A stretch of 64,000 nt of DNA, from assembly GCA_035307565.1 (NCBI GenBank), contig DATGHZ010000013.1, positions 37,294 to 101,293 of the forward strand. The letters are read 5' to 3'. The DNA comes from a bacterium (lineage in GTDB: Bacteria > Sysuimicrobiota > Sysuimicrobiia > Sysuimicrobiales > Segetimicrobiaceae). Positions 8,335 to 29,329 of the stretch are shown piece by piece. Position 1 is the stretch's first letter. Each line of letters begins with the position of its first letter. Position numbers and translations under genes: made by a program. Under the pieces are notes generated by a model. It had not been told where the DNA came from and did no database searches. It saw only the letters and a list, made by a program, of their open reading frames with translations.

Positions 8335-8370
8335 CGGCGGCCCCCCACGACGCTGGTTCACAGCATCCTG

Positions 8371-9525: not shown

Positions 9526-9530
9526 GCCGG

Positions 9531-11928: not shown

Positions 11929-11941
11929 GGACGGCGCGGCG

Positions 11942-12793
11942 TCACGACGCGACCTCCGCGAGCTCGGCGATCGCTTTCGCGTATTCCTCCTTGGTGGGTG
12001 ACCGGTAGTGCCAGATGGGCAGGTGCTCCATGAAGGAGACCCCGCGCCCCTTGACCGTTTTGCCGACCAGCATGAACGGTTTCTCTCGGGGACGCGCCCG
12101 AACGGCCGCGTAGACGGCGGCCGCATCGTGGCCGTTCACCTCGACGCTCTCCCAGCCGAACGCGCGCAACTTGTCGGACACCGGGTAGAACGCGGGATGC
12201 GTCAGGCTCATGCGGTCGAGGCCTGAGATATCGTTGAGGTCCAAGAAGCCGACGAGGTTGCGGAGCCCAAGGTTCGCGGCCATCATCACCGCTTCCCAGG
12301 TCGAGCCCTCCATGAACTCGCCGTCGGACAGCAGCACGTAGATCGTGGCATCCGAGTGCTTGAGCGTCTCCGCGTAGCTCATGCCGACCGCCAGGCCCAG
12401 GCCGTGGCCGAGCGACCCGGTCGACGCCGCGATGCCCGGCACGCCGAAATCGGGATGCGCGCCCAGCCGGCCGTCGACGGTGCAGTACCGGTCGAGGTCC
12501 GCGGCGGTCAGCACGCCGAGCCGTTCCAGGATCACGTACTGAGCCATGCAGCCGTGGCCCTTCGACATCAAGAACACGTCCCGGAACGCGCCGGCATCGC
12601 CGGGCCCCGGCCGCATGAGCCCGGTGTAGATCACGTCGGCCATTTCCAGACACGAGAACGCCGGGGCGACGTGGAGCGCCGTGACCCGCTGCGAAATATC
12701 CAGTATCCGGCGCCGGTAGGCGAGACACCGCCGCCGGGAGGCGGCCGCGCTGAAAGCCCCGGTGACAACGCCGGCGGTGACCTCTGTCTTCAT
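11942..12793 (-). CDS. Transketolase, N-terminal (ThDP-binding) subunit
   Basis: C-terminal 283 aa of ORF 11942..13237. Contains SKGHGCMAQYVIL, GSLGHGLGLAVGM and VLLSDGEFMEGSTWEA (the GDG-type ThDP motif). ATG 12793 forms an ATGA overlap with the upstream stop. Confidence 0.85.
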   Translation of the reverse strand: MKTEVTAGVVTGAFSAAASRRRCLAYRRRILDISQRVTALHVAPAFSCLEMADVIYTGLMRPGPGDAGAFRDVFLMSKGHGCMAQYVILERLGVLTAADLDRYCTVDGRLGAHPDFGVPGIAASTGSLGHGLGLAVGMSYAETLKHSDATIYVLLSDGEFMEGSTWEAVMMAANLGLRNLVGFLDLNDISGLDRMSLTHPAFYPVSDKLRAFGWESVEVNGHDAAAVYAAVRARPREKPFMLVGKTVKGRGVSFMEHLPIWHYRSPTKEEYAKAIAELAEVAS

Positions 12794-13788
12794 GCCCGCA
12801 GCCGATAGTCCATCGGCCAGTCCCGCAGCTGATCGATGTACTTGCGGCCCCACGCCACCATCTCGGCCAGTCCGTCCGTCCAGCCGATCTGCGGCTCCCA
12901 CGCGACGTCGCGCTTGATCGCGCTGGAGTCCAGCCAGTACCGCGAGTCTTGTCCGAGGCGGTCCCCGGTCATCTCGCAGAGCTGGTCGAAGGGCATCCGA
13001 AGCGCTTCGGCGGTGAGTTCGACGACGCGGCGGATCGACGTGGGCTCCTTGGGGCCGGCGTTGTACACCGTGCCCACCGGCGCGCGCTCCGCCACCAGGT
13101 GAATGGCGCGGGCGAGATCCCGCGCGTGGATGTACGACTTTTCCGCCCGGCCGCCGCCGTGCAGCGGGAGCCGCCGGCCGGTGAGCCCGCAGACGACGGC
13201 CTTCGGGATCACGCGGTGCAGGAGCTGCCCGGGACAATAGGCGTTGGACGGCCGGATGATGTTCATCGGGAACTTTAGCACGCGGTGGATGGCGATCAGG
13301 TGCAGGTCGAACGCCGCCTTGGACACCGCGTACGGGCTCGTGGGCTTGATGGGCGTCTCCTCGCGGGCGGCGAAGTCCACGGAGCCGTAGAGTTCGGACG
13401 TCCCGATCTGGATAAACCGCCGCAGATAGTCGCGCGCCATCAGCTCTTCCGTCAAGTGCGAGAGCGCCATCGTGTTGGTCTCGTAAAAACGCCAGGACTT
13501 CTTCCAGGAGACCGCGCCCTCGCCTTGAGCAGCGTAGTTGACGATGACGTCGGGACGCTCGCGATCGAGCACCTCCAAGACCGAATCCATGTCGTAATTG
13601 AGATGGTAGGCGTGGTACTCATATCGCGGCTGGCGGTCGATGTTGAGCGAGAACGGCTCGGGCCGCAGGGGGTTCCGCCCGATGCCGATGACCTTGCGCG
13701 ACTCGGCATGGTTGAGCAGATAGAACGCGGTGTGCACGCCGAACGACCCGCCGGCGCCGAGGATGGCGTATGTTTTCAGCTCCGTCAT
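12790..13788 (-). CDS. NDP-sugar 4,6-dehydratase-like SDR
   Basis: ORF 12790..13878 trimmed to ATG 13788 (ATGA overlap). Contains ILGAGGSFGVH, TSELYGS (compare TDEVYG of RfbB), SPYAVSKAAFD and RPSNAYCPGQ. Confidence 0.7.
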   Translation of the reverse strand: MTELKTYAILGAGGSFGVHTAFYLLNHAESRKVIGIGRNPLRPEPFSLNIDRQPRYEYHAYHLNYDMDSVLEVLDRERPDVIVNYAAQGEGAVSWKKSWRFYETNTMALSHLTEELMARDYLRRFIQIGTSELYGSVDFAAREETPIKPTSPYAVSKAAFDLHLIAIHRVLKFPMNIIRPSNAYCPGQLLHRVIPKAVVCGLTGRRLPLHGGGRAEKSYIHARDLARAIHLVAERAPVGTVYNAGPKEPTSIRRVVELTAEALRMPFDQLCEMTGDRLGQDSRYWLDSSAIKRDVAWEPQIGWTDGLAEMVAWGRKYIDQLRDWPMDYRLRA

Positions 13789-14783
13789 GCGACGGCGAGC
13801 GCCTTCATGCGCCGGACGTTGACGTACCGGTCGTCGTCGAGGCTGTCCGGCAGCCGGCCGGCCCTGAATGCCCGGCACACGTCGCGGACGGCGTCTTCCA
13901 CGGTTCGCTTCGGCGCGTACCCGAGCACGCGGCGAATCTTGTCGGAATTGATGTGATACGTGCGGGGGTCATCGGACGGGGTCGTTTCAATCCTGATGTC
14001 CGGCCGGTCGGGATATTCCTGCCCCACGACGTCGCGAACGATCTCCGTGATACGGGCGATCGTGAGGTTCTGATACCCGATGTTGAAGGTCTCCCCCGCG
14101 ATCTTCTCCGCGGGCGCCTCGATCATCAGCTGGTACGCCTCCGCCATATCCTGGATGTGGAGGTTGGGCCGGACCTGGGAGCCTCCGAACACCGTGATCA
14201 CGCCCCGGTTGACCGCGTGGTTCGTGAGGATGTTGACCGACAGATCGAACCGCATGCGCGGACTGTACCCGCACACCGTCGCGGGCCTGATCGTCACGCA
14301 GGTGAACCCGGAGGCCTGGTGCCTGAAGAGCAGCGGTTCGCACAGTCCCTTGTATTTGTTGTAGAGCGTCAGCGGGACGAGCGGGTGCTCTTCGGTCACG
14401 TCGGGCGCGTCCGACACCCCGTACACCGAACTCGACGAGCAGTAGACGAACCGCTTGACCTCGGCGTCCCGCGCGGCGACGACCATCGGTTCGAAGCATT
14501 CGAAATTGATCGTACGGCTGAACCGCTCGTCGAGCTCAAAACTCGGATCGTTGGAGATGCAGGCGAGATGCAGCACGACGTCCATGCCGCGGAACGCCCG
14601 GCCCAGGCGTTCGGTGTCGCGGATGTCGCCCTCGATCACGTTTAATCGCGGATGGCGCGGGAGTCCGTCGCGGCCGAAGTACAGGACATCGTACACGGTC
14701 ACCGCGTAGCCGCATGACAGCAGATGCGGAACGAGCACACAGCCGACGTAGCCGGCCCCGCCCGTGATGAGCACGTTCTGCAT
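13785..14783 (-). CDS. NAD-dependent epimerase/dehydratase (SDR)
   Basis: ORF 13785..14801. Contains MQNVLITGGAGYVGC, CSSSSVYG and YNKYKGLCE. I prefer ATG 14783 over the track's TTG 14801. Confidence 0.8.
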   Translation of the reverse strand: MQNVLITGGAGYVGCVLVPHLLSCGYAVTVYDVLYFGRDGLPRHPRLNVIEGDIRDTERLGRAFRGMDVVLHLACISNDPSFELDERFSRTINFECFEPMVVAARDAEVKRFVYCSSSSVYGVSDAPDVTEEHPLVPLTLYNKYKGLCEPLLFRHQASGFTCVTIRPATVCGYSPRMRFDLSVNILTNHAVNRGVITVFGGSQVRPNLHIQDMAEAYQLMIEAPAEKIAGETFNIGYQNLTIARITEIVRDVVGQEYPDRPDIRIETTPSDDPRTYHINSDKIRRVLGYAPKRTVEDAVRDVCRAFRAGRLPDSLDDDRYVNVRRMKALAVA

Positions 14784-14838
14784 GCGTGAAATCACCGCCA
14801 ATCGGGTCTCGTGCGCCGCCGGAGCGCCGGCGTCGCGC

Positions 14839-15582
14839 CTACGCCGGTTCGGTTACGGCGTCCGTCGTGATCGAATAGCCCGCCGCCACCGCATCGCGCT
14901 GGAACATCTTGACCGTCTCGAGCGAGTAGTCGTCGAGGTCGCGTCCGACCAGCTCCAGTTTGGCCAGCACGTCGTGCGTCACCGTGATGATGTGGCAACC
15001 GATCTCATCGGCCTGGAAGACGTTCAGCAGCTCGCGCGGGCTCGCCCAGAGCAGCTCGGCCTTCGGCCGGGGCGCGATGACAGCGAGGGCCTCCCGCATC
15101 AGGGGGACCGGATCCACCCCGGTGTCGGCCACGCGCCCGGCGAACACCGAGACGATCGCCGGGGTCTCGCGCGCCAGGCACGCCGTCACCCGGCGGACCT
15201 GGTCGACCGTGAGGACCGCCGTCACGTTGAGCGCGATGCCCTCGCGCGCCAGATCCGTGATCACGGAGCCGGTGAACTCGCCGGCCGTGTTCGTGACCGG
15301 GATTTTCACGAAGACGTTGGGGCCCCACGACGCGATCGTCCGGGCCTGCCGCAGCATCGCCGGAAAGTCGTCGGCGAACACTTCGAACGAGACGGGCCGG
15401 TCGGGCACGGCGGCGAGGACGGTTCGTGCGAACGATTCGTAGTCGTCGACGCCGGCCTTTCTCATCAACGTCGGGTTGGTGGTGAAGCCTTTGATGAGGG
15501 GATTGCCGTAGAGGCGCATGATCCCCGCGAGATCGGCCCCGTCGGCAAAGATCTTGACGCGGAGACCTCGCAAGCGCTCCAT
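14839..15582 (-). CDS. Transaldolase-family enzyme (short TalC/FSA-like class)
   Basis: ORF 14839..15582. KIFADGADL...GFTTNPTLM...VFVKIPVT...NVTAVLT...SVFAGRVADTG is the class-3 transaldolase / fructose-6-P aldolase pattern, including the Schiff-base Lys in VKIP. Confidence 0.85.
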   Translation of the reverse strand: MERLRGLRVKIFADGADLAGIMRLYGNPLIKGFTTNPTLMRKAGVDDYESFARTVLAAVPDRPVSFEVFADDFPAMLRQARTIASWGPNVFVKIPVTNTAGEFTGSVITDLAREGIALNVTAVLTVDQVRRVTACLARETPAIVSVFAGRVADTGVDPVPLMREALAVIAPRPKAELLWASPRELLNVFQADEIGCHIITVTHDVLAKLELVGRDLDDYSLETVKMFQRDAVAAGYSITTDAVTEPA

Positions 15583-15615
15583 ATCCCGCCCCCCGGCCTC
15601 CAGGATCGGGTGCGA

Positions 15616-16155
15616 CTACTGTGGGCCCGCGCTGACCGCCAGGATCCAGTCGACCGCGGCGGGCAGAGAATCCGTCACGAAATCGGGCGCCACCGGCTTC
15701 GGCTCATGGTAGCCTCGGTCGATGAAGACCGTTCGGCAGCCCGCACGGCGGCCCGCCTCCACGTCTTTCCATCGGTCTCCCACTATGACGCTCGAGGAAA
15801 GATCAATATCGAGGCGGCGTGCCGCGGCCACTAGCAGTCCAGGTTTCGGCTTTCGGCACCCGCAATCCTCCCAATCCGAGTGAGGACACATCTCGATCGC
15901 ATGGACGGGCAGCCATTCGCGGAGTTTCCTATGCATCGCTTCTACAGCAGCGATATCCACAAGACCAAGCGCAATATCGGGCTGGTTGGTCGCCACGACG
16001 ATCAAAAATCCGGCCGCGCGGAGGGCTCGGACGGCGTCCCGAACACCGGCCAACAGACGAAAATCCTCCAACTGCCGGGGCGCGTATGCCTTGCCGTGTC
16101 GTACCGCCGTGGCCGTCAGGACGCCATCGCGATCAAGAAATACGGCCTGTCGCAT
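15616..16155 (-). CDS. gmhB: D-glycero-D-manno-heptose 1,7-bisphosphate phosphatase-like HAD-IIIA phosphatase
   Basis: ORF 15616..16188. Contains AVFLDRDGVL (the DxDGT/V nucleophile motif), VVATNQP, CxCRKPKPG and GDRWKDVEAG. I prefer ATG 16155, which is preceded by GAGGG. Confidence 0.8.
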   Translation of the reverse strand: MRQAVFLDRDGVLTATAVRHGKAYAPRQLEDFRLLAGVRDAVRALRAAGFLIVVATNQPDIALGLVDIAAVEAMHRKLREWLPVHAIEMCPHSDWEDCGCRKPKPGLLVAAARRLDIDLSSSVIVGDRWKDVEAGRRAGCRTVFIDRGYHEPKPVAPDFVTDSLPAAVDWILAVSAGPQ

Positions 16156-18121
16156 CTCGCCCTCGGGGCAACTCAGGTCGCCCCGCATTTGCCCGTGTTG
16201 ATGGATGCCGGCGACGCAGCACGTACCGTGCCGCCCAGTTCTTGATCAAACGACTTGTGGCATCCCGGTATCTCTTGTCCCGCAGCACAGCCACGATTGT
16301 CCATAGAGGATTCATGACCCCGAGTGCCGGGGAGACCCAGTCACGCTCGTCGTTCGGTCGCGACCGGCCCTGCGTCCACCCGGCTCTCTCTTTCACCCGC
16401 TGCCACAGATACCGCCGGTACCGCCAACCCCAAAATGCCACCACAATCGGCCGGCCGAACCACCGCCGGACAAGCCAGCCCTGCACGATGCCCCACGCCG
16501 CCCGCCGGTATCGTCTGTCCCGCACGATTACTGCCACGGTCCATAACGGGTTCATCAAACCCATCGTCGGTGAGACCCAGTCCCGCGCGTCGCCCAGTCG
16601 CGACCGGCCTCGCGTCCACCCCGATCTCTCTTTCACCCGCTGCCACAGATACCGCCGGTATCGCCAACCCCAGAAAGCCAGGAACATCGGCGCGAGGGTC
16701 TTACGTTGAGATAGCCATCCGCGGATAAGTCCCAACGCGGCTCGCCGATGCGGTTGATCGCGCGCGATGACTGCCATGGTCCACAACGGGTTCATCAACC
16801 CTAACGTCGGTGTTATCCAGTCCCGCGCGTCGTCGAGCCGCGAGCGACCCTTCGACCACCCTATTTTCTCCTTCGCTCGCTGCCAAAGAAAGCGGCGATA
16901 CCGGTAACACCACAGGATGTTGCGCAGCGCCGAATTCGACATGACGATGCGTGCCGTCAACCCGGGAGCGAGAAGCGCGGCTGTCACCTCGATGGCTCGC
17001 TGCTTGAGCCCGGGGGCCGCATAGACATCAGCAACCATCCTGGCCGCTCGCTGCTGGGTCCGCGTCCAGGCTGGCGATACGTCGGTGGCGTGGAAGCACA
17101 CCGGAGTCGGAAAGACCTCCCGCTTCAGCGGATCCATGACCTCGCTGTCCTTCAACTTGCGAACCAGCTGAGTCTTATACCAGTTGATGAGCCAGGCCGG
17201 CCGCTTCCCGAATTCGGGACGTAGGTCGAAATGCAAATCCGCTTCTTTAGTGAAACTCACGTACGCCACTTCATCGCTATCGGTGACGATGTATATGTCA
17301 TTCGCGTTCGGGAAATTCCGATAGACGTAATCGCCGTCCAGCGTCCAATTCTCGAACGTCGAAATGTCGTGTTTCGCGAGCGCCGCGTAGTCCATCACCA
17401 ACGGCGCCCAACTGAAGGTGTGGAAGATCAGTCCGTCTCCTCCCGGGACCTGCCAGTACGGCGAAATGGGTGATTCCGCAAACCAGGGGGCATCAAAATC
17501 GTACCGGCGCGTTTCCGAATGAAGGTGCCGCAGCACGACGCGCATCAGATCCCTCGGCCCGATCACGAGAGGCTGTCCAGGCACGAGATATCCGCGGTGC
17601 TGTAGTTCCGGGATTGCGCCTTCGTACTGAAACCGAACGGCGATGGCAAAGACCACCTTTTTGCCCGTCTCCACCAACCGTTCGAGTGCAGCAATCGAGC
17701 CGTCGGCGAACATGGCGTCGGGAGTAAGATACATCCCGTACGCGCGATCTCGGAACGCTCGGGTCGCCAACATGGCCTGACCACGCGACATCACGCTCAT
17801 TTTGCGGTCGTGGCGGTGCGCGTCCGATTCTACCTCGAGCGGCAACCACACAGGCTCGGCGTAGGCCTTGAGTCGAGTCAGCAACGGATGGCTCTGTAAG
17901 GCTTGCCAATCCTCGGCCGTCGTAGAGATTAGCACCTTGCTTCCGCGGGCCGGGTCCAGGGCGGGAATGTTTCCGGGAGCCAACAACGACGCGAGAAGGA
18001 GGTCGGTAAAGTAGGCCCGGTACACCGGCCCCCAGAATACAACCGTGAAATAAAAGGGGCGCAGCGCCGTGCCGGCAACCGGCGCCTCCAGGTCGCCGAC
18101 AGCGCCGACGCGGGGGCCCAT
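16133..18121 (-). CDS. Hypothetical protein: an unassigned ~420-aa N-terminal domain plus three tandem 80-aa Trp/Arg-rich C-terminal repeats
   Basis: ORF 16133..18154. Third codon positions are G/C-rich and the translation has ordinary (non-junk) composition. The start is ATG 18121 or TTG 18154, directly after the wzt stop. The N-terminal FYFTVVFWGPVYRAYF...LTPDAMFADGS stretch is only vaguely GT-A-like. The 3' end overlaps gmhB by 23 nt. Confidence 0.7.
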   Translation of the reverse strand: MGPRVGAVGDLEAPVAGTALRPFYFTVVFWGPVYRAYFTDLLLASLLAPGNIPALDPARGSKVLISTTAEDWQALQSHPLLTRLKAYAEPVWLPLEVESDAHRHDRKMSVMSRGQAMLATRAFRDRAYGMYLTPDAMFADGSIAALERLVETGKKVVFAIAVRFQYEGAIPELQHRGYLVPGQPLVIGPRDLMRVVLRHLHSETRRYDFDAPWFAESPISPYWQVPGGDGLIFHTFSWAPLVMDYAALAKHDISTFENWTLDGDYVYRNFPNANDIYIVTDSDEVAYVSFTKEADLHFDLRPEFGKRPAWLINWYKTQLVRKLKDSEVMDPLKREVFPTPVCFHATDVSPAWTRTQQRAARMVADVYAAPGLKQRAIEVTAALLAPGLTARIVMSNSALRNILWCYRYRRFLWQRAKEKIGWSKGRSRLDDARDWITPTLGLMNPLWTMAVIARDQPHRRAALGLIRGWLSQRKTLAPMFLAFWGWRYRRYLWQRVKERSGWTRGRSRLGDARDWVSPTMGLMNPLWTVAVIVRDRRYRRAAWGIVQGWLVRRWFGRPIVVAFWGWRYRRYLWQRVKERAGWTQGRSRPNDERDWVSPALGVMNPLWTIVAVLRDKRYRDATSRLIKNWAARYVLRRRHPSTRANAGRPELPRGRDATGRIS
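16193..16912 (-). repeat. Three in-frame tandem repeats of 240 nt (80 aa) inside the 16133-18121 CDS
   Basis: The units start at 16912, 16672 and 16432 on the minus strand. The consensus is W-x-x-RYRR(Y/F)LWQR(V/A)KE(R/K)xGWxxGRSRxxDxRDW(V/I)(S/T)PxxGxMNPLWT. Positions 16385-16440 and 16625-16680 differ at only 3 of 56 nt. Confidence 0.9.
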
Positions 18122-18154
18122 CTCTACGCGTGATCGCCGGGGCGGCGGATCCAA

Positions 18155-18955
18155 CTACGGGCCCCCAGCCACTGCTTCCGCCAGCGAAGGCTGCGGCTGT
18201 TCCGGCGGGGTCTCACGCATTTTGCGATACACTTCACTTACCTCATGGAGGTCGCCCAGCATCACGACGCGCCCGCTGTCGAGGAGCAGCGCTTTGGTGC
18301 ACATCGACTGGATGATGGCGTCCGAGTGAGAGGCCAACACAAGGATGTTTGCACGCGCAAGCAACGCATCAACTCGCTTGGCCGCTCGCTCCGCGAACCG
18401 CGCGTCGCCGGCGCCGATTCCCTCGTCGAGCAGCAGTATCTCGGGATCAATGGCGGTGGCAACAGCGAAACATAGCCGGGAGAGCATGCCCGAGGAGTAG
18501 GTCCTGACCGGCAGCGACAGGTAATCGCCAAGTTCGGAGAATGCCGCGATGTCGTCGATCTTGACGCGAATCTCGTCCCGGTGCATACCAAGAAATAGAC
18601 CGCACGTGATGATGTTCTCGTATCCCGTATCATCCATGTCGAGGCCGGGGGCAATGTTGAACAGCGGCGAAACGCGGCCCTCGATCGCAACGCGGCCCGC
18701 GACCGGCTGATAGACGCCAGCGAGAACCCGCAGCAGCGTGGATTTACCGGCGCCGTTGTACCCAAGGATTCCGACGCGATCGCCGTGATCGATTCTAAGC
18801 GAGACGTTCTCGAGGGCGCGGATGGTCACGCGATTGTGGCGGCCCTCACGCCGGATCAATCCTCCAACGCGCGCCGCCAGTTCCTTACGGAACATCTTTT
18901 GCGACCCGTAGACCGGAAAGCTAACCGTGACGTTCTCAACCGCAACGGACGCCAT
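18155..18955 (-). CDS. wzt: Polysaccharide ABC exporter ATP-binding protein (NBD only, no C-terminal carbohydrate-binding domain)
   Basis: ORF 18155..19054 trimmed to ATG 18955 (AGGAG upstream). Contains Walker A GYNGAGKSTLL, the signature YSSGMLSRL, Walker B ILLLDE and the H-loop ASHS. It is 266 aa long. Confidence 0.85.
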   Translation of the reverse strand: MASVAVENVTVSFPVYGSQKMFRKELAARVGGLIRREGRHNRVTIRALENVSLRIDHGDRVGILGYNGAGKSTLLRVLAGVYQPVAGRVAIEGRVSPLFNIAPGLDMDDTGYENIITCGLFLGMHRDEIRVKIDDIAAFSELGDYLSLPVRTYSSGMLSRLCFAVATAIDPEILLLDEGIGAGDARFAERAAKRVDALLARANILVLASHSDAIIQSMCTKALLLDSGRVVMLGDLHEVSEVYRKMRETPPEQPQPSLAEAVAGGP

Positions 18956-18968
18956 AGAAAGATCGCTC

Positions 18969-19832
18969 CTACATCCAATACGCCAGCCGCCGGCGAAAAC
19001 GGCTGTAGGTCCACAGAGTGACGGCCCAGCCGACAACCGTGGCCAGTAGCACAAATTCGTACGTCAAACGGGACGGGAGCTTTCCGAGGAGAGGCGATCG
19101 GATCACATCGACGTAATGAAAGAGCGGGTTGCCGTTGGCAAAGTACTTTGTCATTTTCGGACCCAACTGTTCGGGCGTAAAGAAGATTGGCGTTACGAAC
19201 ATGGAGATCTGGAGAATGCTCATCACAACCTGTTGGACGTCCCGGTAGCGCGTGCATACCATCCCCAGCATCATGGCGAACCAGATGCCGTTGATCCAGA
19301 CCAAGAGTATGCCCGGAATTGTGAGAAACATCGCCACTTTGGGGTGAAGCCCCGCGAATATAGCGACGCCGATGAAAATCACGAAGTTGTGAAAGAACAC
19401 GATCAGATTCCGCCAGACGACCGTGCAGGCCAGGAGCGAGTATGGGAAACGCAGTTGCTTGATGAGGCTCTCCCCAGACAGAAACGTCTGGCAGCCCTCG
19501 CTGATGACCGCGGCGACCAGGTTCCAGGCGAGCAAGCCGGTGGTAAGAAACGGCAGGTAAACCTTAGGGTCTTGATGCCAAAGATTCGCCCAGACGAGAC
19601 CCAGTGCGAGCATAAAGATGCCAAGGCTTAACGTATTCCAGAATGGGCCAATCGCGGTTCGGCGGTAGCGCCGCTTAATCTCTTGCCAGCCCAGCCGCCC
19701 CCACATCCGCCAGTCGGACAGCCCTGTGATAATATCCAGCGCCGCGATATCGTACTGGGCAGCCGCCGCGACGTATCTTACGGTTGTTCGTCCCGCGCTC
19801 GGATGTTGCACTTCCGTCCGCTCCGATATCAT
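18969..19832 (-). CDS. wzm: ABC-2 type polysaccharide exporter permease
   Basis: ORF 18969..19919. RRYRRTAIGPFWNTLSL is followed by about 6 hydrophobic segments, the typical Wzm/KpsM/TagG pattern. I prefer ATG 19832 because ATG 19919 would overlap the divergent GT4 start. Confidence 0.8.
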   Translation of the reverse strand: MISERTEVQHPSAGRTTVRYVAAAAQYDIAALDIITGLSDWRMWGRLGWQEIKRRYRRTAIGPFWNTLSLGIFMLALGLVWANLWHQDPKVYLPFLTTGLLAWNLVAAVISEGCQTFLSGESLIKQLRFPYSLLACTVVWRNLIVFFHNFVIFIGVAIFAGLHPKVAMFLTIPGILLVWINGIWFAMMLGMVCTRYRDVQQVVMSILQISMFVTPIFFTPEQLGPKMTKYFANGNPLFHYVDVIRSPLLGKLPSRLTYEFVLLATVVGWAVTLWTYSRFRRRLAYWM

Positions 19833-19912
19833 TGGCCTGCAATGTACGATAACGCTTCGAGGCTCTCCTCCGCCCGAGGCGGTGTCACGATCGAAGACCG
19901 TGCACAGGGGAA

Positions 19913-21097
19913 ATGACATTGGCGCATGACGTGACCGAATCGATCCGAATTGCCCGCGTGATCACCCGTCTTAATATCGGCGGACCTTCCCGCCATGTGA
20001 TGACTCTGACGAGTGCGCTGAACGACGGCCGTTTCCGAAGCCGATTGATTTGCGGTATTCCAACGCCGAACGAGGGCGATTTGACCGCCGAAGCCAGAGC
20101 CGGCGGCTATCCCCTTGTCCAGATCCGGGCCCTGCGGAACGACGCCGGATTGATCGCCGCGCTCGCGACCATGCAGACATTGTACCGCGAATTCCGAACG
20201 ATGCGACCCCACATCGTGCACCTCCATCAGTTCAAAGCACGGTTCTTGGGCGCGCTTGCCGCGCGCGCGGCAGGCGTCCCCCATGTCGTGCAGACGTATC
20301 ACGGCACTTTGCTGCAAGGATACTTTCTCCCGCCACTCGCGACGGCGGTTACGCTCTTGGAGCGGCTTCTGGGACGCTGGCTAGTGCATCATACCATCGC
20401 CATCAGTCCGGAGGTTTGCCGGCAACTAGTCGAGCGCGGGATGGTAGATCCCCACCGTATCACAGTCATTCGCTTGGGGTTGTCACTGACTCCCCTTCTT
20501 ACGCCGCCTGAATCGGGTGACGCCTTCCGGCGCGAGATCGACATTCCGACGGACGCACTGCTCATTGGATTCGTCGGCCGGCTGGCGCCCATCAAGGGCG
20601 CCGATCTTTTTCTGGAGGCCGCCGAGGAGTTGATCCGTACGATGGAGCGCCCGGTATATGCCGTGATCGTCGGCGATGGACCAGAGCGGCAGCACCTGGA
20701 AGCGCAGGCACGGCGGGCTGCGATCGACAGTCGAATCATTTTTACCGGGTGGCGGCGAGATCTTCGGGCGGTCTACTGGGGCATCGATGTGCTGGCCGTG
20801 ACGTCTCGAAGCGAAGGAACGCCGGTCGTTGCCATGGAGGCGATGGCCGCGCGGCGCGCGGTTGTGGCGACTCGTGTGGGTGGAATTCCGGACATCATTC
20901 AGGACGGACGCACCGGTTTGCTCATCGAACCCGGCAACCCGCAGCGGCTCGCGGCGGCTCTTCAGCAAGTACTGGAGGATGTGGCGCTGCGGCAGAGGCT
21001 GGGGTTGGCCGCGCAGCAGTCGGTTTATCCGGCCTACGACGAGACAACGCTGTGCAGGGCGATGCGGGAATATTACGCACGGCTACTCGAAGGGTGA
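19913..21097 (+). CDS. Glycosyltransferase family 4 (GT-B, RfaB-like)
   Basis: ORF 19913..21097, with AGGGGA upstream of the ATG. GFVGRLAPIKG...SRSEGTPVVAMEAMAARRAVVATRVGGIPDII is the EX7E-type GT4 C-terminal motif. Confidence 0.85.
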   Translation: MTLAHDVTESIRIARVITRLNIGGPSRHVMTLTSALNDGRFRSRLICGIPTPNEGDLTAEARAGGYPLVQIRALRNDAGLIAALATMQTLYREFRTMRPHIVHLHQFKARFLGALAARAAGVPHVVQTYHGTLLQGYFLPPLATAVTLLERLLGRWLVHHTIAISPEVCRQLVERGMVDPHRITVIRLGLSLTPLLTPPESGDAFRREIDIPTDALLIGFVGRLAPIKGADLFLEAAEELIRTMERPVYAVIVGDGPERQHLEAQARRAAIDSRIIFTGWRRDLRAVYWGIDVLAVTSRSEGTPVVAMEAMAARRAVVATRVGGIPDIIQDGRTGLLIEPGNPQRLAAALQQVLEDVALRQRLGLAAQQSVYPAYDETTLCRAMREYYARLLEG

Positions 21098-22759
21098 TGC
21101 ATGGCGACGGCGCCACCGGTGCCACGGTCTGACAAGCAGCGCGCGAAGCACTCCTTGGCGCACGATCATGTCTTTCACGAGTCCGACCGCCGCGTCTCTT
21201 TGTCGTTTGTCTCGCAACACCATCTTTAGCGTCCAGAGGGGATTCATCAGCCCCAACGCCGGCGAGACCCAGTCGCGGCCGTCATCCAGCCGTGCCCCGC
21301 CCTTCACGATGCCCAGCCGCTCCTTGGCCTTGTGCCACAGATACCGCCGGCACTGCAAGCACCAGTGCACCCGGCCCGGCAGAGTCCAGGGTCCCACACG
21401 GGCCACGAGTTGCCGCGCATTTGCTTGCGAAAGCGCATTCCGAGTGCGTCTGAAAGCACCCCAGTCTGCGGCGCCGTCCGTCCATTTCACCCCTCGCCGG
21501 TCCAGGACAACCTCCGCCATCATACGCGCGTAGGCCCGGTGCCCGCGCGCGCTCCACTTTTCCACCATCTGAGGGAATTGGTACCAGGAGCGCAACTCCT
21601 CGTCTGTGGTGCCGGCGGGAATGCGCCCGCGCATGTCGAGGACTCTGATGTGGGGCGCCTGCGCCACCATCGCGTCCGTGAACTCGAAAGGCTGGTTCAA
21701 CTCGTAGTAATGGAAATTGTGGGTGATGACAAGATTGGGTACGGTTTCGGCCAGCCACCCGAAGTGGACGATGCCGAACTCGATCATCCGCGGGCGATCC
21801 AGCCTCGGGTCACTCATCGGGGCTTGAACGTCGAAATCCCGTACCCGACTGACATCGATATTTACCGGCTTTCCGGTCAACATGCGAAGGGTCAAGGCTC
21901 CGAACCGAGGCATCACCCCCTCGACCATGTCATCGACGACCTGACGCTGGAGCATCCGGACGCGCCGCGCGTCCTTGACGAAGCTCCGGGATGCCTGGAA
22001 CCCGTACGGACGGGCCGGAATCACCTTCGGATGACGAAAGGATGTGGCCATAAAGCCTTGGACAATCGCCGGCGCCGCGGCTGCGACATCATCTAGGCCG
22101 GGGCCAACTCGATACTCAACGAGGACATTCGCGACCGGATGACCCTGATACCGCAGTGGCGCCCCAACGAGCGGGCGGTAAAAGTCGGTCTCGACATAGT
22201 TGACAATGGTGAGATCGGGGGAGAACTTATGTCCTTCGTTCTGCCACGCCTTGACGTAGTGCTCGGGGCCCGCGTCCGGCCATGCCAGATTAAACACCCG
22301 ATACCGTACTGACGTGTCCCGTCGGTTCAGCTCCTCTTCTAGCAAATCCGGCCAGCTCTGGTCTGACACCGACGACGCGCTCTGCTCACCGCCAATAATG
22401 ACAATGCGGAACTCTCCCGCCTCTCGCTCATAGCTGTAGTCGCGATGGGAGATGAAGCCGAGATTGTTGGTCCGTATATCAGCGGCCGCGATGCACTCCG
22501 CATCATAACCGTACATCCGATATGCCAATGTCGTATTGGGACATCGCTGGGTGGCATTGTATGGGTCGCCCGTACTCAATGCGCCGGAATGCAAGATCAC
22601 CGGCCAGAGTGCGCTGTTACTCTTGTTGGCGTCCCGAACGTACCTCCGCAGCCACCATTCCAATGCTATCACGGCCGCCGCGGCGCACGCGGCGTCAATA
22701 AGAGCCCTTACCAAGGGGACGGCCGGAACTCGTGAGTGAACGGCCGGTGCAGTTGACAC
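21083..22759 (-). CDS. Hypothetical membrane-anchored protein whose C-terminus carries one copy of the 80-aa Trp/Arg-rich module
   Basis: ORF 21083..22759 (GTG start). It has an N-terminal hydrophobic helix (LIDAACAAAAVIALEWWL). FRIVIIGGEQSAS and ARGHRAYARMMAEVV give only a weak SGNH/GDSL-like impression. The C-terminus WCLQCRRYLWHKAKERLG...RDWVSPALGLMNPLWT matches the 16193-16912 repeats. Confidence 0.65.
   Translation of the reverse strand: MSTAPAVHSRVPAVPLVRALIDAACAAAAVIALEWWLRRYVRDANKSNSALWPVILHSGALSTGDPYNATQRCPNTTLAYRMYGYDAECIAAADIRTNNLGFISHRDYSYEREAGEFRIVIIGGEQSASSVSDQSWPDLLEEELNRRDTSVRYRVFNLAWPDAGPEHYVKAWQNEGHKFSPDLTIVNYVETDFYRPLVGAPLRYQGHPVANVLVEYRVGPGLDDVAAAAPAIVQGFMATSFRHPKVIPARPYGFQASRSFVKDARRVRMLQRQVVDDMVEGVMPRFGALTLRMLTGKPVNIDVSRVRDFDVQAPMSDPRLDRPRMIEFGIVHFGWLAETVPNLVITHNFHYYELNQPFEFTDAMVAQAPHIRVLDMRGRIPAGTTDEELRSWYQFPQMVEKWSARGHRAYARMMAEVVLDRRGVKWTDGAADWGAFRRTRNALSQANARQLVARVGPWTLPGRVHWCLQCRRYLWHKAKERLGIVKGGARLDDGRDWVSPALGLMNPLWTLKMVLRDKRQRDAAVGLVKDMIVRQGVLRALLVRPWHRWRRRHASPFE
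21086..21364 (-). repeat. Single dispersed copy of the 80-aa module found in triplicate at 16193-16912
   Basis: Protein-level identity to the repeats is about 60% over the first 50 aa. At the DNA level, gccacagataccgccgg is shared with 16402-16418. Confidence 0.8.
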
Positions 22760-23004
22760 ATTATTCCAACTCCGTTTCGCGCGCTTCTCGGCGCGGGTAT
22801 TTACACTTCACATTAAAAATATGGTCGTTCGCACCGATCGTCAATTCCCCCCTCTCGATCCTGCTACGACCGTAATTCCCGACCAGTGCGCGTGCCTACT
22901 CAATTGTCGATTACGATTTCGAGACCATCAAAAGCCTGCCGCCGCCGTCGGGCGCGCAAGACGAAGCGTCCCAAAAGTGTGGAGCGAACCTGCGGAAAGG
23001 GCGA

Positions 23005-24297
23005 TCACGTACGCGGCCGGGACATGATCATGCCAAAGAAAAAACTAAACAAAATGGCGCCTTCCTCGGTCACGACAGCAGGATGCAGCACATTCAGCAC
23101 CGCCAGCGCGGTGAGACCGGTCACCGCGATCTTGAATCGCGGCCACGGGCGGGAACCGGCGATCTCGCGCAGCCGCTGAAACCCGGTGACCAACGGCATG
23201 ACCACGATCCACGTGTACAACGCAAGCCCCACCACCCCGGTCTTGACCAGCAAGAATCCATATCCCGTCGACATATACCGCCACGGGCCGCCCGGACCAT
23301 TGTCGGGCGGCGCGGTGGCGGTGACGCCTCCGAGTCCGACGCCGAAGAGTGGATCGTGAAGAAACCGTGGAATCCCACTCTGAAATTCGGAAATTCGCTG
23401 AAGCATCGAGCCGTCCGTCGCAGCCCGAGACCAATGTCCCATCATCTGCTTTATTGGAGCGACGATCCAGGACGGGCCGGGGAGAACACCTGCGCCATAG
23501 CCGTACACGGCGGTGAGGACCACCGCGAGGAGCGCCGCGCGGAGCGCGACCGCCCCGCCGGACGGAACAAACGTCAGCACGAGAACCGACAGGCCCAATG
23601 CGAGGCCCTCCGCCGTGCGCTCCTGCATCGCGATGATGTACCAAATGAGGACGGGCAGCGCGGCGGCCCACGCGAGCCGCGCCACCGGCGTCTCGTCGGC
23701 GAGCGCGCCGCCGAGCGCCACGGTGAACGCCACGACCGGCACCGACCACTCCAAGTACCGGGCGACGAACGGCGCCACCGGCCGGTTGCCGGGCAGCTCG
23801 ATGACGCCGGACAACTGCAAAAAGACGGCCACGGCCGCAACACACGTGAAGAAAACATATACGCCCGCCAGTCGCCGAAAATCATTGCCGCGGAATCCCG
23901 CACAAGTGTACGCTAGCGCGAGCAGGTAGAAGGACAAGGGCCGGAGTTCCCGCACGGCGAGAAACGTTCCGCCGGGATCACGCAGGCCAGCGACAAATGG
24001 AACGGCCATATACGCCACGAATGCCCCCACCCACAGAAGTTCACGTCGTCCCTGATAAACCGCGCGCACGATGAGCGGCGCCGCCGTCAGCACCGCGGCG
24101 GCGGCGAGCGCATCCTCTAGGTTGATCTTCGCGCCCTGAAGGCTCAGCAACGGATACACGCGTAGCGTATATCCTGGTACCATCGCCGCGACGGCGGTGA
24201 TCGCGTAGAGGAAACAGCGGGGTATGGCCGCGGCGGCGCTTCGCCACTGTGGGTGAATCGCCGGGTGCTCAGCGGGGTCGATCGTGGAGTGTAGCAC
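23005..24297 (-). CDS. Multi-pass membrane protein, O-antigen ligase/polymerase (Wzy_C)-like
   Basis: ORF 23005..24297, 430 aa. It has at least 10 hydrophobic segments and a central loop (MQERTAEGLALG...) in the position of the Wzy_C domain. This is a pattern-level call only. Confidence 0.55.
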   Translation of the reverse strand: MLHSTIDPAEHPAIHPQWRSAAAAIPRCFLYAITAVAAMVPGYTLRVYPLLSLQGAKINLEDALAAAAVLTAAPLIVRAVYQGRRELLWVGAFVAYMAVPFVAGLRDPGGTFLAVRELRPLSFYLLALAYTCAGFRGNDFRRLAGVYVFFTCVAAVAVFLQLSGVIELPGNRPVAPFVARYLEWSVPVVAFTVALGGALADETPVARLAWAAALPVLIWYIIAMQERTAEGLALGLSVLVLTFVPSGGAVALRAALLAVVLTAVYGYGAGVLPGPSWIVAPIKQMMGHWSRAATDGSMLQRISEFQSGIPRFLHDPLFGVGLGGVTATAPPDNGPGGPWRYMSTGYGFLLVKTGVVGLALYTWIVVMPLVTGFQRLREIAGSRPWPRFKIAVTGLTALAVLNVLHPAVVTEEGAILFSFFFGMIMSRPRT

Positions 24298-25837: not shown

Positions 25838-27631
25838 GTGAGCGCGGCACGAATCATCGCCGAGCCGTTTGCGTATAGCCTAGTGGGCGCGGTCCTCTTG
25901 ACGGGTGGCCTGCGCGCTTTTCTCCTGTACGTCGGGCTGATCGATCGTCCCACCGCCGACCGCTGGCACCGGCGGCCCGTCGCGCGCCCCGGGGGCCCGG
26001 CCATCGTTGCCGTGGTGCTGGCAGGCATCGCGCTCTTCTTCCCCGGCCCCATGAGCGGCACGATGCGGGGATGGCTCGCCGGCGGCGTCTTCATTTTCAT
26101 CGTCGGCCTAGTCGACGATTTGACGGCCGGCCTGCAGAGCCCGCTCAAGCTGACGCTCCTGATCATCGGCGCGGCGATTCCCGTGTTGTTCGGCGTGACC
26201 GTGAAGGCACTGCCGCCCGTGCTCGGCACGCCGATTGCGATGTTGTGGATCCTCGGACTCACCAATGCCGTCAATTGGCTCGACAACATGGACGGCCTCG
26301 CCGCCGGCGTCAGCGCGATTGCGGCCGGCACCTTGGTGGTCCTGTCATTCGCTTTTCACGACGGGGCTACGGCGGTGACCGCGTCGCTCGTCGCAGGCGC
26401 CTGCGTCGGGTTCCTGTTCTTCAATTTCAGCCCGGCGAGCATTTTCATGGGCGATTCGGCGAGCGGATTTTTGGGGCTCACACTCGCCGTCCTAGCCCTC
26501 TCCGGTCCGGCCGGGCATGTGTCCGGGCTCTTCCTGGCGCTCGTCGTCCCCGTCCTGATTCTCAGTATTCCGATTTTCGATACCGCCGTGGTGACGATAT
26601 CACGGGTGTGGAGCGGACGGCCGCTATTTCAGGGCGGCACAGACCATCCCTCGCACCGCCTGGTAGTCCTTGGGCTGACCGAACGGCAGACCGTCCTGCT
26701 GCTGTGGGCCTTGAGCGCGTTGTCGGCTTCCGCCGCCGTGCTGGCGTCACGGCTCGGTCCGGCGGCCGGCCTCGTGTTTGCCGGCGTGTTCGTCTGCGTC
26801 TTTACCGCGCTGGGATTAACAGTGGCCAGGGTCCGCGTCTACGAGGTGGCGGCGCTCCCCCTCGGAACCGCCCGGGTCGTGTTGGCCCAGATGCTTCACA
26901 AGCGTTCGCTGCTCGCGATCGTGCTCGACTTCATTTTGATCTGCGTGGCTTACATCAGCGCGGCACTGCTGCGTTTCGAAGGGACCATCCCCGCCGCCTA
27001 CGTTCCGATTGTCGTCCAATCGCTGCCGGTCGTCCTCGCCGTCAAACTGACCCTGTTCTACCGTATGGGTCTGTACCGTACGAAGTGGCGCTACGTCGGC
27101 CTGCTCGATCTCCTCACATTCCTGCGTGCGTCGCTGCTAGCCTCGCTCGTTTGCGTCGGGGTGCTCTTTCTCGTCGCGGGGCTCAGAGGCTTTTCCCGCG
27201 CCGTCCTCGTGCTCGATTGGATCCTCACGTTCGGCCTGCTGGGCGGAATGCGGCTCTCGCTGCGAGTTCTCGAGGAGTACTTTATCAGTCTGCGAACACG
27301 GGGAAAGCGCGTTCTAATTTTCGGCGCCGGCCGGGGCGGCGTGCTTCTGCTTCACGAACTGCGGAGCAACCCGTCGCTCGCCTGCAGCCCAGTCGGCTTC
27401 GTGGACGATGATGCCTTCAAGCAGGGCGACATCGTACGGGGACTGCCAGTGCTCGGCACCGGCCGGGACATCCCCGCCCTGGCCGCTGAGCACCGGATCC
27501 AAGAGGTCCTGGTTGCGGTGCCGTCGCTGAGCACGGAGGCGGTCGACCGGATTGCCCTCATGTGCGGCGAGGCCGGGATCTCGTGGCGCGTCGTGCGTCC
27601 TCTGCTCGAACCGGCGCCGCAGGACGTATAA
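25838..27631 (+). CDS. Polyprenyl-phosphate HexNAc-1-phosphate transferase (MraY/WecA family) fused to extra TM helices and a CoA_binding_3-like Rossmann domain
   Basis: ORF 25838..27631 (GTG start). NAVNWLDNMDGLAAG and FFNFSPASIFMGDSASGFLG are PNPT motifs. The C-terminal RVLIFGAGRGG...PVGFVDDD...GLPVLGT...IQEVLVAVPS resembles the pre-catalytic domain of WbaP/CapD-type proteins. Confidence 0.8.
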   Translation: MSAARIIAEPFAYSLVGAVLLTGGLRAFLLYVGLIDRPTADRWHRRPVARPGGPAIVAVVLAGIALFFPGPMSGTMRGWLAGGVFIFIVGLVDDLTAGLQSPLKLTLLIIGAAIPVLFGVTVKALPPVLGTPIAMLWILGLTNAVNWLDNMDGLAAGVSAIAAGTLVVLSFAFHDGATAVTASLVAGACVGFLFFNFSPASIFMGDSASGFLGLTLAVLALSGPAGHVSGLFLALVVPVLILSIPIFDTAVVTISRVWSGRPLFQGGTDHPSHRLVVLGLTERQTVLLLWALSALSASAAVLASRLGPAAGLVFAGVFVCVFTALGLTVARVRVYEVAALPLGTARVVLAQMLHKRSLLAIVLDFILICVAYISAALLRFEGTIPAAYVPIVVQSLPVVLAVKLTLFYRMGLYRTKWRYVGLLDLLTFLRASLLASLVCVGVLFLVAGLRGFSRAVLVLDWILTFGLLGGMRLSLRVLEEYFISLRTRGKRVLIFGAGRGGVLLLHELRSNPSLACSPVGFVDDDAFKQGDIVRGLPVLGTGRDIPALAAEHRIQEVLVAVPSLSTEAVDRIALMCGEAGISWRVVRPLLEPAPQDV

Positions 27632-27640
27632 TGGCGCCAT

Positions 27641-29329
27641 GTGCGCCGGCGCGCGAGGCGTGAGCCCGGCCGGCCCGGTATGACGCGGCCGGACAACCAG
27701 TCTGCACCCTGGGAAGGCCGCCACCTTCCGGGCGCGGCGTACCGGTGGGGGGTCGTATGCGCGACGGTGCTGGGCGCCGTCCTTCGTGTCGCGCATATCG
27801 CCCGTCCATTCAATCGCCTCATGGCATGGAACGAAGGACACTATGCGATGACGGCGCTTAATTTCGACCGGTACGGGCTTTGGGCGCCGCACAACGAACT
27901 CGGCTTGGACCGCACGTTTTCGCCGGCGGGGCCGTGGCTCATGTGGGCGTCCATGAAGCTGTTTGGGACCTCGGAGGCCGCGGCGCGGCTGCCGATTGTG
28001 CTTGCCGGGATCGCGACGATTCCTCTCGTCGCGGCCCTCGCCCGGCGCCTCGCGCGCAGTGAGCAGATCGCCCTGACGGCGGCCGCGTTCGTCGCTGTCG
28101 CGCCGGGACTCGTCTACTTCTCACAAAACGTGCAGCTGGACACACTCAGCATTTGCTGGGCGCTGGCGGCGGCCGTCTTCATGCTGCGGTACCGCGATAT
28201 CGCGCATCGTTGGGATGAGGTGTGGGCCGGTGTGTGCCTGGCGACGGCGGTGTGGTTCAAGTTTACGACCCTGCTCCTTTACCCGGCGTTTCTCGTCCTG
28301 TGGTGGCCGACCCGCCCCGCGCGGACGGCCGTAGCGGCGCTTGCGGCGGGGGCCTTCGCCGCGGTGACGGCACTCCCCAGTCTCCTCTGGGTTGCGGCGG
28401 GCTGGCTGACGTTTCGGACTTCGTCGGGATTTACGAAGCGTTTTTTCTTCCGCGACTGGGACCTCCGCGGCATCGCGAAGGCATTGTCCGAGATCCCGCT
28501 CGCCGTGGAGGCGCATCTTTTCATTGTGATCTTTCTGCTGCTGCTCTTCGGGATCGCGGCCGCGGTGCGCTGGCCCGCAAGGTTCCGCGCGGTGTGGGTA
28601 TGGTGCGCGCCGTGGATCGTGCTGTACATCTTCGCGCCGTGGGACAGCCTGGTGAATCGCTACTATGATCTTCCGGCCACGTATCTTCTCACCATTGTGG
28701 CCGCCGCGGGCTTGTGGACGTGGACCGTGCGCAGGCATCGGGACGCGGCGGTCACGGGGAGTGCTCGACCGCACGCACCGGGCGCAGCCGATCCGGTGGA
28801 CCGAGAACGGCCCGGCCCGGAGTTGCCGCGCGCCCTGCTCGCGGGCCTCGTGGTCGTCGTCGGACTGACCGCCGCCTACGACGCGTGGGACCCGATGACC
28901 GACCGGATCGCGCGGGCCTCGATGGCCCACGTACCGCCGATCGATCCGTCCCCCTTCTACTCCGCGAAGATCGTGGCCGCGCTTCCGCGCGGCAGGACGA
29001 TCGCGGATACGCCGCAGACGATGTTCTATGCGGGAGGCGACCCCGCGTGGATCGACATCACGGGCGGCGATGTGCGGTGGAAGATCGACGCCGAAGAGTT
29101 CGACTACGTCATTCTCAACGACTACGGACACGGGCAGGAGCCGTATTATGTCATCGACGCGACCCTTCGCGCGCAGTTGGCCCGGCATCACTACGTTCAA
29201 ATTGCGCCCACCGCGTGGGCGCATGTGCGGACCCGCATCGCCGATCTGGGCGGCTACCGCGATTCCGGCGTCCCGTACTGGTCGCCGGCTGGGGCCGGCC
29301 GGCGTGTCGCGATGACCGCGTGGCGCTGA
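27641..29329 (+). CDS. GT-C fold glycosyltransferase (PMT_2 / ArnT-like, family 39/83-like)
   Basis: ORF 27641..29329. WNEGHYAMTALNF...LPIVLAGIATIPLV is followed by many TM segments, as in ArnT/PMT enzymes that use polyprenyl-P-sugar donors. The start is uncertain (GTG 27641 or ATG 27680). Confidence 0.75.
   Translation: MRRRARREPGRPGMTRPDNQSAPWEGRHLPGAAYRWGVVCATVLGAVLRVAHIARPFNRLMAWNEGHYAMTALNFDRYGLWAPHNELGLDRTFSPAGPWLMWASMKLFGTSEAAARLPIVLAGIATIPLVAALARRLARSEQIALTAAAFVAVAPGLVYFSQNVQLDTLSICWALAAAVFMLRYRDIAHRWDEVWAGVCLATAVWFKFTTLLLYPAFLVLWWPTRPARTAVAALAAGAFAAVTALPSLLWVAAGWLTFRTSSGFTKRFFFRDWDLRGIAKALSEIPLAVEAHLFIVIFLLLLFGIAAAVRWPARFRAVWVWCAPWIVLYIFAPWDSLVNRYYDLPATYLLTIVAAAGLWTWTVRRHRDAAVTGSARPHAPGAADPVDRERPGPELPRALLAGLVVVVGLTAAYDAWDPMTDRIARASMAHVPPIDPSPFYSAKIVAALPRGRTIADTPQTMFYAGGDPAWIDITGGDVRWKIDAEEFDYVILNDYGHGQEPYYVIDATLRAQLARHHYVQIAPTAWAHVRTRIADLGGYRDSGVPYWSPAGAGRRVAMTAWR

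Follow-up and report, generated by a model that had tools for sequence, protein, structure and literature searches.

The 64-kb stretch of bacterial DNA analysed here (from contig DATGHZ010000013.1; hereafter the window, meaning the whole stretch) encodes a tryptophan- and arginine-rich repeat module at the C-termini of two proteins with unrelated catalytic folds. Protein A, a predicted GT-A-fold glycosyltransferase with three module copies, and protein B, a predicted SGNH-fold enzyme with one copy, flank the genes for an ABC-2 permease (wzm), for an ATPase consisting of a nucleotide-binding domain (NBD) only (wzt), and for a family 4 glycosyltransferase (GT4). The composition of the module makes the membrane surface the first candidate for a "partner" common to both proteins. 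We favor, with a probability of roughly 0.45, a reading in which the module is a peripheral tether that holds the enzymes at the inner-membrane surface near the exporter. The novelty lies in the tail repeat as a sequence family, in the portability of this repeat across two enzyme folds, and in two unannotated enzyme families.

Most of what is understood about ABC-transporter-dependent glycan assembly comes from a handful of enterobacterial O-antigens, in which a coiled-coil ruler and a carbohydrate-binding module (CBM) on Wzt coordinate synthesis with export. How soluble enzymes are retained at the exporter is poorly defined for CBM-less systems, above all in environmental lineages such as the Nitrospirales. 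The locus defines three unannotated families: GT-A-fold transferases, of which a cluster may hold as many as five or six paralogues; transmembrane-anchored "NonGDSL" SGNH proteins; and a portable Trp/Arg repeat, which offers a simple handle since it can be varied in number or removed. Should the module be no more than a membrane tether, it still provides useful annotation and a new Pfam-type family; if it truly docks onto Wzm-Wzt, it would represent a new coupling mechanism.

Open reading frames (ORFs) of the window were scored against Pfam and NCBIfam. All six genes named in the original prediction, which had been made from the DNA sequence alone, were found at or near their predicted positions:

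16133..18121, minus strand: protein A, 662 amino acids (aa) from an ATG, predicted GT-A-fold enzyme with three C-terminal modules
18155..18955, minus strand: wzt, 266 aa from MASVAV, the most likely start (the ORF extends to 19054)
18969..19919, minus strand: wzm, ABC-2 permease (Pfam ABC2_membrane, PF01061, E 5e-18)
19913..21097, plus strand: GT4 glycosyltransferase (Pfam Glyco_trans_1_4, Glycos_transf_1 and Glyco_transf_4)
21083..22759, minus strand: protein B, 558 aa from a GTG, with a hydrophobic helix, a predicted SGNH-fold "NonGDSL"-like domain and one module
23005..24297, minus strand: Wzy_C/O-antigen-ligase-like polytopic protein, upstream of protein B on the same strand

The ORF of protein A reaches back to a TTG at 18154 (16133..18154, minus strand, 673 aa), and its ATG form is the same protein as database entry P0001, annotated "hypothetical protein." The annotated form of protein B is P0121 (526 aa). 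A gap of 33 nt separates the stop codon of wzt from the start of protein A. The permease gene and its cognate ATPase gene are adjacent; the true start of wzm is probably internal to its ORF, relatives being about 265 aa long. The GT4 gene is divergent from wzm and convergent with the gene of protein B. Wzt was correctly described as NBD-only: ABC_tran (PF00005, E 7e-20) is the sole Pfam domain in its 266 aa, which places it in the CBM-less subclass. The gene previously called WaaL/Wzy-like is present, but its match to Wzy_C is weak (E 3e-6, 27.5 bits against a cut-off of 31.7), and it has no NCBIfam match.

The shared C-terminal module had been proposed as three copies in protein A and one in protein B, and this proved real. 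A six-frame scan of the window with a profile hidden Markov model (HMM) returned exactly four copies, all on the minus strand:

16760..16915, minus strand: module copy 1 of protein A, 53-aa core (six-frame hmmsearch, 81-87 bits)
16520..16672, minus strand: module copy 2 of protein A (six-frame hmmsearch)
16280..16432, minus strand: module copy 3 of protein A (six-frame hmmsearch)
21212..21367, minus strand: module copy of protein B (hmmsearch, 72-78 bits)

The four copies have 26 invariant columns in common. By BLASTP, residues 466-552 of protein B align to each of the three consecutive repeats of protein A at 37-58% identity (E-values 3e-25 to 5e-22). At the DNA level, Tandem Repeats Finder reports a 240-nt period in the gene of protein A (2.4 copies, 76% matches, score 602). 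The core of the module is about 53 aa long, and the period of 80 aa in this genome reflects the addition of an extra helix. The module was also rightly called undescribed, as it has no match in Pfam or NCBIfam, and a PDB profile search yielded nothing usable (one match at E=1, to apolipoprotein C-III).

The composition of the module sets it apart from the domains to which it is attached. Across 76 copies it contains 11.9% Trp and 15.1% Arg and has a mean net charge of +6 per 52 aa, compared with 2.6% Trp and about -0.5 per 53 aa in the GT-A domains of module-bearing proteins. The consensus reads W-x-W-R-Y-R-R-F-x-W-x-R-x-K-E-K-x-G ... D-D-G-R-D-W-x-x-P ... P-x-W-[ST]-x-R. No variation occurs at R7 and R8, while W2, Y6, W11, E16, G19, W33, P36, and P43 are at least 93% conserved, and this conservation spans two clades that are just 30-40% or so identical overall. 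AlphaFold2 (AF2) models each module as an aromatic and basic helix, a 24-residue loop, and a second helix, with a predicted local distance difference test score (pLDDT) of just 60-85 and no compact globular domain. The tails of proteins A and B are thus modelled as helix-loop-helix units split by 24-residue, Gly/Pro-containing loops. Their longest helix is about 21 residues in protein A, and a single C-terminal helix of about 36 residues, of low model confidence, in protein B. On this predicted secondary structure, a coiled-coil or ruler identity of the tails was rejected. A transmembrane hairpin was likewise rejected: no hydrophobic stretch of transmembrane length was found in the module, the longest being just 11-16 residues or so with a mean Eisenberg hydrophobicity of at most 0.61.

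In clusters for ABC-transporter-dependent glycans, the enzymes work on an acceptor that is lipid-linked and lies at the cytoplasmic membrane face. If the module is a membrane tether, its cationic, Trp-rich helix-loop-helix would bind the inner-membrane surface, with the aromatic and basic first helix resting in the interfacial zone against anionic lipid head groups and a short, Pro-kinked hydrophobic stretch dipping into the leaflet. Tandem copies (one to five) would add avidity, and the catalytic domain, presumed to be cytoplasmic, would be kept where the undecaprenyl-pyrophosphate-linked acceptor and the Wzm-Wzt exporter sit. Favorable interfacial partitioning and the net positive charge of +6 per copy are consistent with such binding. 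The best 11-aa Wimley-White interfacial free energy averages -6.45 kcal/mol per copy, against -2.0 kcal/mol for random windows of the N-domains, and 0.5% of these control windows reach the module mean. Because single-copy proteins occur, a unit works by itself and need not be part of a solenoid.

Four observations weigh against a plain membrane anchor. The helical hydrophobic moment of the module is modest (maximum 0.44 on the Eisenberg scale, 18-aa windows), so that its helices fall short of the textbook in-plane amphipathic anchor. Sequence conservation is far above what a generic lipid-binding helix needs and therefore hints at a specific ligand. Protein B has a hydrophobic anchor of its own at the N-terminus, which makes a second one look redundant. 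Finally, where a cluster holds several paralogues of protein A, the one bearing the module is always nearest to wzt, which a generic anchor does not predict.

The N-terminal domain of protein A had been described as vaguely GT-A-like, and structure prediction upholds this description:

16979..18067, minus strand: GT-A-like catalytic domain of protein A, about aa 28-400 (family HMM 572.7 bits)

Modelled by AF2 from an 85-sequence alignment, residues from about 30 to 400 reach a pLDDT of about 96-98. A Foldseek search of the PDB gives 75 matches at E<=1e-3, the best being SpsA, GnT-I, TarP, and COLGALT1 (E about 5e-5 to 1e-4), with glycogenin and GalNAc-T2 also among the matches listed; the 50 listed are nearly all GT-A glycosyltransferases, plus some sugar nucleotidyltransferases. 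In contrast to the fold, the sequence of protein A has no Pfam or NCBIfam match at E<=0.1. Its 85 homologues have none beyond isolated chance matches and none to glycosyltransferase Pfam models, and a PDB sequence-profile search with the family found no match. Because a GT-A fold is predicted and yet no glycosyltransferase Pfam model matches, protein A probably represents a glycosyltransferase of an unannotated GT-A-fold family. The 201 homologues found in a collection of 5.8 billion proteins are, without exception, "hypothetical." AF2 strands combined with the sequence alignment identify a candidate DXD region, in which P145-D146 and S150-D151-G152 are nearly invariant after the strand at 139-143.

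Several variants of the protein A architecture were noted along the way. Some paralogues end in a SPRY domain (PF00622) in place of the Trp/Arg module (L002, 15897-17669; L004, 14608-17025; L009, 14824-16635; L010, 14725-16497; and L021), and Nitrospirales clusters hold four to six paralogues, either bare, SPRY-fused, or module-bearing, within 20 kb. One homologue with two modules (P0016, 786 aa) is fused to a transaldolase domain (PF00923). This fusion is probably a gene-call merger or read-through; in the window, the genes of protein A and of a transaldolase lie close together on the same strand.

Protein B combines its module with a membrane helix and a second, unrelated fold, and here too an impression from the sequence ("vaguely SGNH-like") is borne out by structure prediction and Foldseek:

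22652..22723, minus strand: N-terminal hydrophobic helix of protein B, about aa 13-36 (Kyte-Doolittle 1.92)
21494..22609, minus strand: SGNH-fold domain of protein B (pLDDT mostly above 90, family HMM 565 bits)

AF2 extends the helix over residues 13-46, and its hydrophobic character is kept in 23 of 25 family members. Foldseek matches the domain to EstL5, a GDSL esterase, and CgnD at E 1.5e-4 to 1e-3, and to TesA and others up to 1e-2. By sequence, protein B has no Pfam match at E<=0.1, and NCBIfam returns only a negligible line for a sigma-70 subfamily (13.6 bits against a cut-off of 202). A database search with protein B gave 26 matches, 25 of them B-family proteins and nearly all 400-430 aa long with an N-terminal hydrophobic helix. 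Among these 25 relatives, weak Pfam matches are to NonGDSL (PF25182) in 13 and DUF6473 in 16; PF00657 matches two. A PDB sequence-profile search with the family returned a single match, to a lysophospholipase L1-like esterase, at E=0.54. Protein B would accordingly be classed as a putative membrane-anchored, SGNH-fold ("NonGDSL") glycan-modifying enzyme. At the expected GDS(L) nucleophile block the family consensus has I-G-G-E-Q-T-A-S, and at the expected D-x-x-H block E-K-W-S-x-x-G-H. This suggests a non-canonical active site, in agreement with the "NonGDSL" match, and the canonical Ser-His pair may be absent from the family.

The side of the membrane on which the SGNH domain resides is ambiguous. 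Positive charges occur on both sides of the helix and vary between subclades, so that the positive-inside rule points neither to the cytoplasm nor to the periplasm, and many N-termini of the family resemble signal anchors. If the domain is periplasmic, its module cannot touch Wzt.

The module is rare. An exhaustive HMMER search of 1.84 billion representative proteins, using a profile built from 76 copies, found just 11 proteins with a module match. Of these, the nine strongest comprise A-type and B-type proteins and short fragments; the two weakest, one a fragment of 35 aa and the other a protein of 3477 aa (E 4e-5), were left unclassified. A word-indexed search with an 88-column, four-copy profile gave a false negative, missing the window's own protein in the database, and negatives of such searches with short repeats are unreliable. 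In the best 120 homologues of protein A, hmmsearch detected the module in 45, always C-terminal to the GT-A domain. One to five tandem copies occur, single-copy proteins are common, and copy number shifts fast among close relatives, ranging from one to five at over 50% identity of the N-domain.

The earlier claim that the module sits on unrelated enzyme folds, GT-A and SGNH, is strengthened by a second SGNH carrier. P0148, a divergent B-family SGNH protein from another metagenome-assembled genome (MAG), has two module copies, and the module therefore joined the SGNH family more than once or was lost many times. The module of protein B is 57-61% identical to the copies of protein A in the window; the highest value is that for copy 3 (61%), yet many foreign copies reach 57-60%. 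Similarly, the modules of P0148 are closer to foreign A modules (80%) than to those of the same MAG (73-75%). Concerted evolution or recent transfer between the A and B modules of one genome was considered and rejected, as the identities show no signal of either. The gene of P0148 itself lies in a 21.9-kb locus (L008, GCA_030157225.1), where it is clustered with family 2 glycosyltransferase (GT2) genes, methyltransferases, and eight large ORFs (639-717 aa) without a Pfam match. A different contig of this MAG holds a wzm-wzt-A-A locus (L001).

Members of the A family without the module also end in a tail. It consists of 35-110 aa, is basic, aromatic, and helical, and carries the motif W-x-F-R-R-R-I ... 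L-R-G-D-R ... W-x-x-R (L012, L018-L053). Because module-less members share this feature, a basic, aromatic C-terminal tail seems to be general to the A family. An alignment of the first helix of the module with these tails by hhalign is weak (16 columns, P=0.011, 3.9% probability) and no more than a hint. Judging from these tail sequences, the A-family tail may contact the membrane, and the module would then be one elaborated, duplicating form of it.

The original prediction had pointed to Wzm/Wzt as the partner of the module. The module would then be a specific docking tag that recruits the GT-A transferase and the SGNH-type modifier to Wzm-Wzt, or to each other, and that couples synthesis or modification to export in systems with a CBM-less Wzt. 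We consider this rather unlikely. Some of its support is genomic. Loci were collected from 10 contigs obtained by exact-protein look-ups and 43 loci from GTDB species representatives, and were scanned with HMMs for the A domain, the B domain, Wzm, Wzt, and the module. Thirteen distinct loci bear modules. The genes wzm, wzt, and module-bearing A follow one another directly in nine of the 13, an order kept across two deeply diverged module types, with 14-82 bp between the end of the Wzt match and the start of the GT-A domain match in the loci measured. One other locus has a single gene in between, and another has its exporter 8.6 kb away. All seven distinct loci with several A paralogues have the module-bearing one closest to wzt. 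Exporter genes were found in the fetched region of 11 of the 13 module loci but in 13 of 32 module-less loci of at least 10 kb (one-sided Fisher p=0.008). The enrichment beside exporters is real. Further points in favor of docking are the presence of one module on two unrelated folds, in at least two B-family sublineages (those of protein B and P0148), the very strong conservation of its polar, Gly, and Pro positions, and the separate anchor of protein B, given which the module should add something else. In addition, the Wzt proteins of module loci are all NBD-only (252-266 aa).

However, this enrichment is confounded by shared ancestry. The module loci are mostly orthologous Nitrospirales clusters whose Wzm and Wzt form one clade, 56-73% identical to those of the window, and they are therefore not independent samples. 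Descent of whole clusters explains the synteny, which does not demonstrate a physical link. In L012, Wzm and Wzt are 60% and 69% identical to those of the window, as close as in module loci, yet no module occurs in 21 kb. Conversely, L004 (A-type) and L008 (B-type) have modules without an exporter within 10 kb, and module-less A homologues adjoin wzm/wzt in L018 (Magnetospirillum), L024, L032, and many Alphaproteobacteria. The exporters of module loci lack an extra domain that could act as a receptor, A and B modules within one genome show no sign of evolving in concert, and the signal-anchor-like N-termini of many B-family proteins might place the B module in the periplasm, beyond the reach of Wzt. 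Wzm/Wzt as the partner is thus not borne out, and an exporter-docking "accessory system" is possible but unsupported. The module genes do flank the exporter, as had been claimed; the gene of protein B lies outside the wzm-wzt transcription unit and converges on the GT4 gene, which has the opposite orientation. Wzt is indeed NBD-only, but systems of this kind are known already and need no recognition device (PMC6286764).

A more specific proposal, which we also regard as unlikely, treats the module as a dockerin-like address tag restricted to a single clade of CBM-less Wzm-Wzt exporters. It would draw a glycosyltransferase, and in certain genomes an SGNH-type modifier as well, to the exporter or to one another, with copy number (one to five) tuning the stoichiometry of enzyme to exporter and hence chain length. 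If true, chain length would be controlled in a third, undescribed way, in addition to the coiled-coil ruler and the checkpoint formed by the Wzt CBM.

Alternatively, the module could bind an anionic ligand of the pathway, such as the undecaprenyl-pyrophosphate head group or an acidic or phosphorylated glycan. It would then serve as a clamp that holds the acceptor or gives processivity and that could operate on both membrane faces, which would reconcile a cytoplasmic glycosyltransferase with a possibly periplasmic SGNH enzyme. Arg and Trp are classic residues for phosphate and sugar contacts, and the module is both strongly cationic and aromatic, with a conserved, structured D-D-G-R-D-W-x-x-P loop between its helices; copy number could scale with the length of chain contacted. 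Nevertheless, searches of Pfam, NCBIfam, and PDB profiles reveal no similarity to known carbohydrate- or lipid-binding domains, known CBMs are beta-rich whereas the module is helical, and what the clusters encode are neutral-sugar modifications (methyl, carbamoyl, N-acetyl), not obviously acidic polymers. We find this explanation distinctly improbable.

Least probable is that the tandem modules form a spacer or oligomerization scaffold, either a non-coiled-coil "ruler" for chain length or a platform assembling A, B, and module-less paralogues: copy number does change quickly among close relatives (one to five), and one paralogue per cluster carries the module, much as the single scaffold WbdD recruits WbdA (PMC11231755), but single-copy proteins are common, the Gly/Pro-rich loops and low-to-moderate model confidence do not describe a rigid rod, and the distal end has no terminating enzyme domain, nor does Wzt have a CBM to read a terminator.

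A tether at the membrane surface has a precedent in WbdD, the terminator of Escherichia coli O9a and Klebsiella pneumoniae O3. WbdD carries a membrane-associated amphipathic helix at its C-terminus (PMC11231755), in a region that mediates membrane association and recruits the polymerase (PMC11231755, PMC6286764). Like that region, the module is a C-terminal, non-catalytic, predicted helical segment of a putatively cytoplasmic enzyme whose gene adjoins wzm-wzt in an ABC-transporter-dependent O-polysaccharide pathway. Unlike it, the module is a conserved 53-aa repeat, unrelated in sequence, that occurs in one to five copies on two enzyme folds in a system whose Wzt has no CBM. It is preceded by neither a coiled-coil ruler nor a kinase or methyltransferase domain, and no methyltransferase, kinase, or Kdo-transferase domain was matched in A or B. 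By analogy, the module may play the role of the membrane-association region of WbdD while belonging to an unrelated sequence family.

Terminator-dependent systems are the ones that use coiled-coil rulers and Wzt CBMs (PMC11231755). The Wzt CBM of the O9a, O12, and O4 type is likewise an accessory, non-catalytic module, and it couples the completion of the glycan to its export (PMC11231755). In contrast to the present module, it is a beta-sandwich fused to the NBD and reads the chain terminator; the present module is predicted to be helical, is carried by biosynthetic enzymes rather than by Wzt, and has no detectable similarity to the CBM. The window locus fits the CBM-less class, having neither a coiled-coil ruler nor a Wzt CBM. 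Systems with an NBD-only Wzt are known, and chain length is set there by the stoichiometry of enzyme and exporter (PMC6286764). The locus resembles the CBM-less exporters of K. pneumoniae O2a and of mycobacterial galactan in its NBD-only Wzt and in that galactan-export NCBIfam models match best. However, the window's Wzt reaches 279 bits against a cut-off of 400 (galactan export Wzt/RfbE) and its Wzm 249 bits against 380 (galactan export permease); both scores are below the equivalog cut-offs, and the two proteins are therefore not orthologues. To our knowledge, the Trp/Arg repeat is found in neither the K. pneumoniae O2a nor the mycobacterial galactan system.

Outside glycan export, the GW modules of Listeria and the choline-binding repeats are Trp-rich, C-terminal tandem repeats of variable number that serve as non-covalent anchors. 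They fix diverse catalytic domains to anionic polymers or surfaces of the envelope, and their avidity rises with the number of copies. These repeats are extracellular and beta-rich (SH3-like or beta-hairpin), and their Pfam models do not match the module.

The region forms the central part of a diderm's glycan assembly cluster, of the ABC-transporter-dependent, O-antigen type. Beyond the six genes above, the following features were identified:

25838-27631: WecA-type initiating transferase (PF00953)
28714-30477: ORF of a further GT4 enzyme (Pfam)
31892-33433: LptA/LptD_N and LptC-like protein of 513 aa (domain matches)
37399-39372: MsbA-type ABC exporter, downstream of the LptA/LptC-like gene
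39369-40304: GT2 enzyme (Pfam)

The LptA/LptC-like and MsbA-type genes indicate that the organism is a diderm with an Lpt-type pathway. Downstream genes also include a UDP-sugar dehydrogenase, a PMT_2 glycosyltransferase of the GT-C type, and a phosphomannomutase. Upstream, positions 4725-16188 encode an HldE-like kinase/cytidylyltransferase, a GmhB-like HAD phosphatase, a transaldolase, and a transketolase (transketolase-N), together with four epimerase/dehydratases, an FkbM methyltransferase, and a carbamoyltransferase. Judging from these genes, precursors of the glycan may come from a dedicated pathway for heptose-type or related sugars. The ORF of the FkbM methyltransferase has about 400 aa without a match ahead of its domain, and both the carbamoyltransferase and the FkbM methyltransferase recur in the Nitrospirales loci and in L006.

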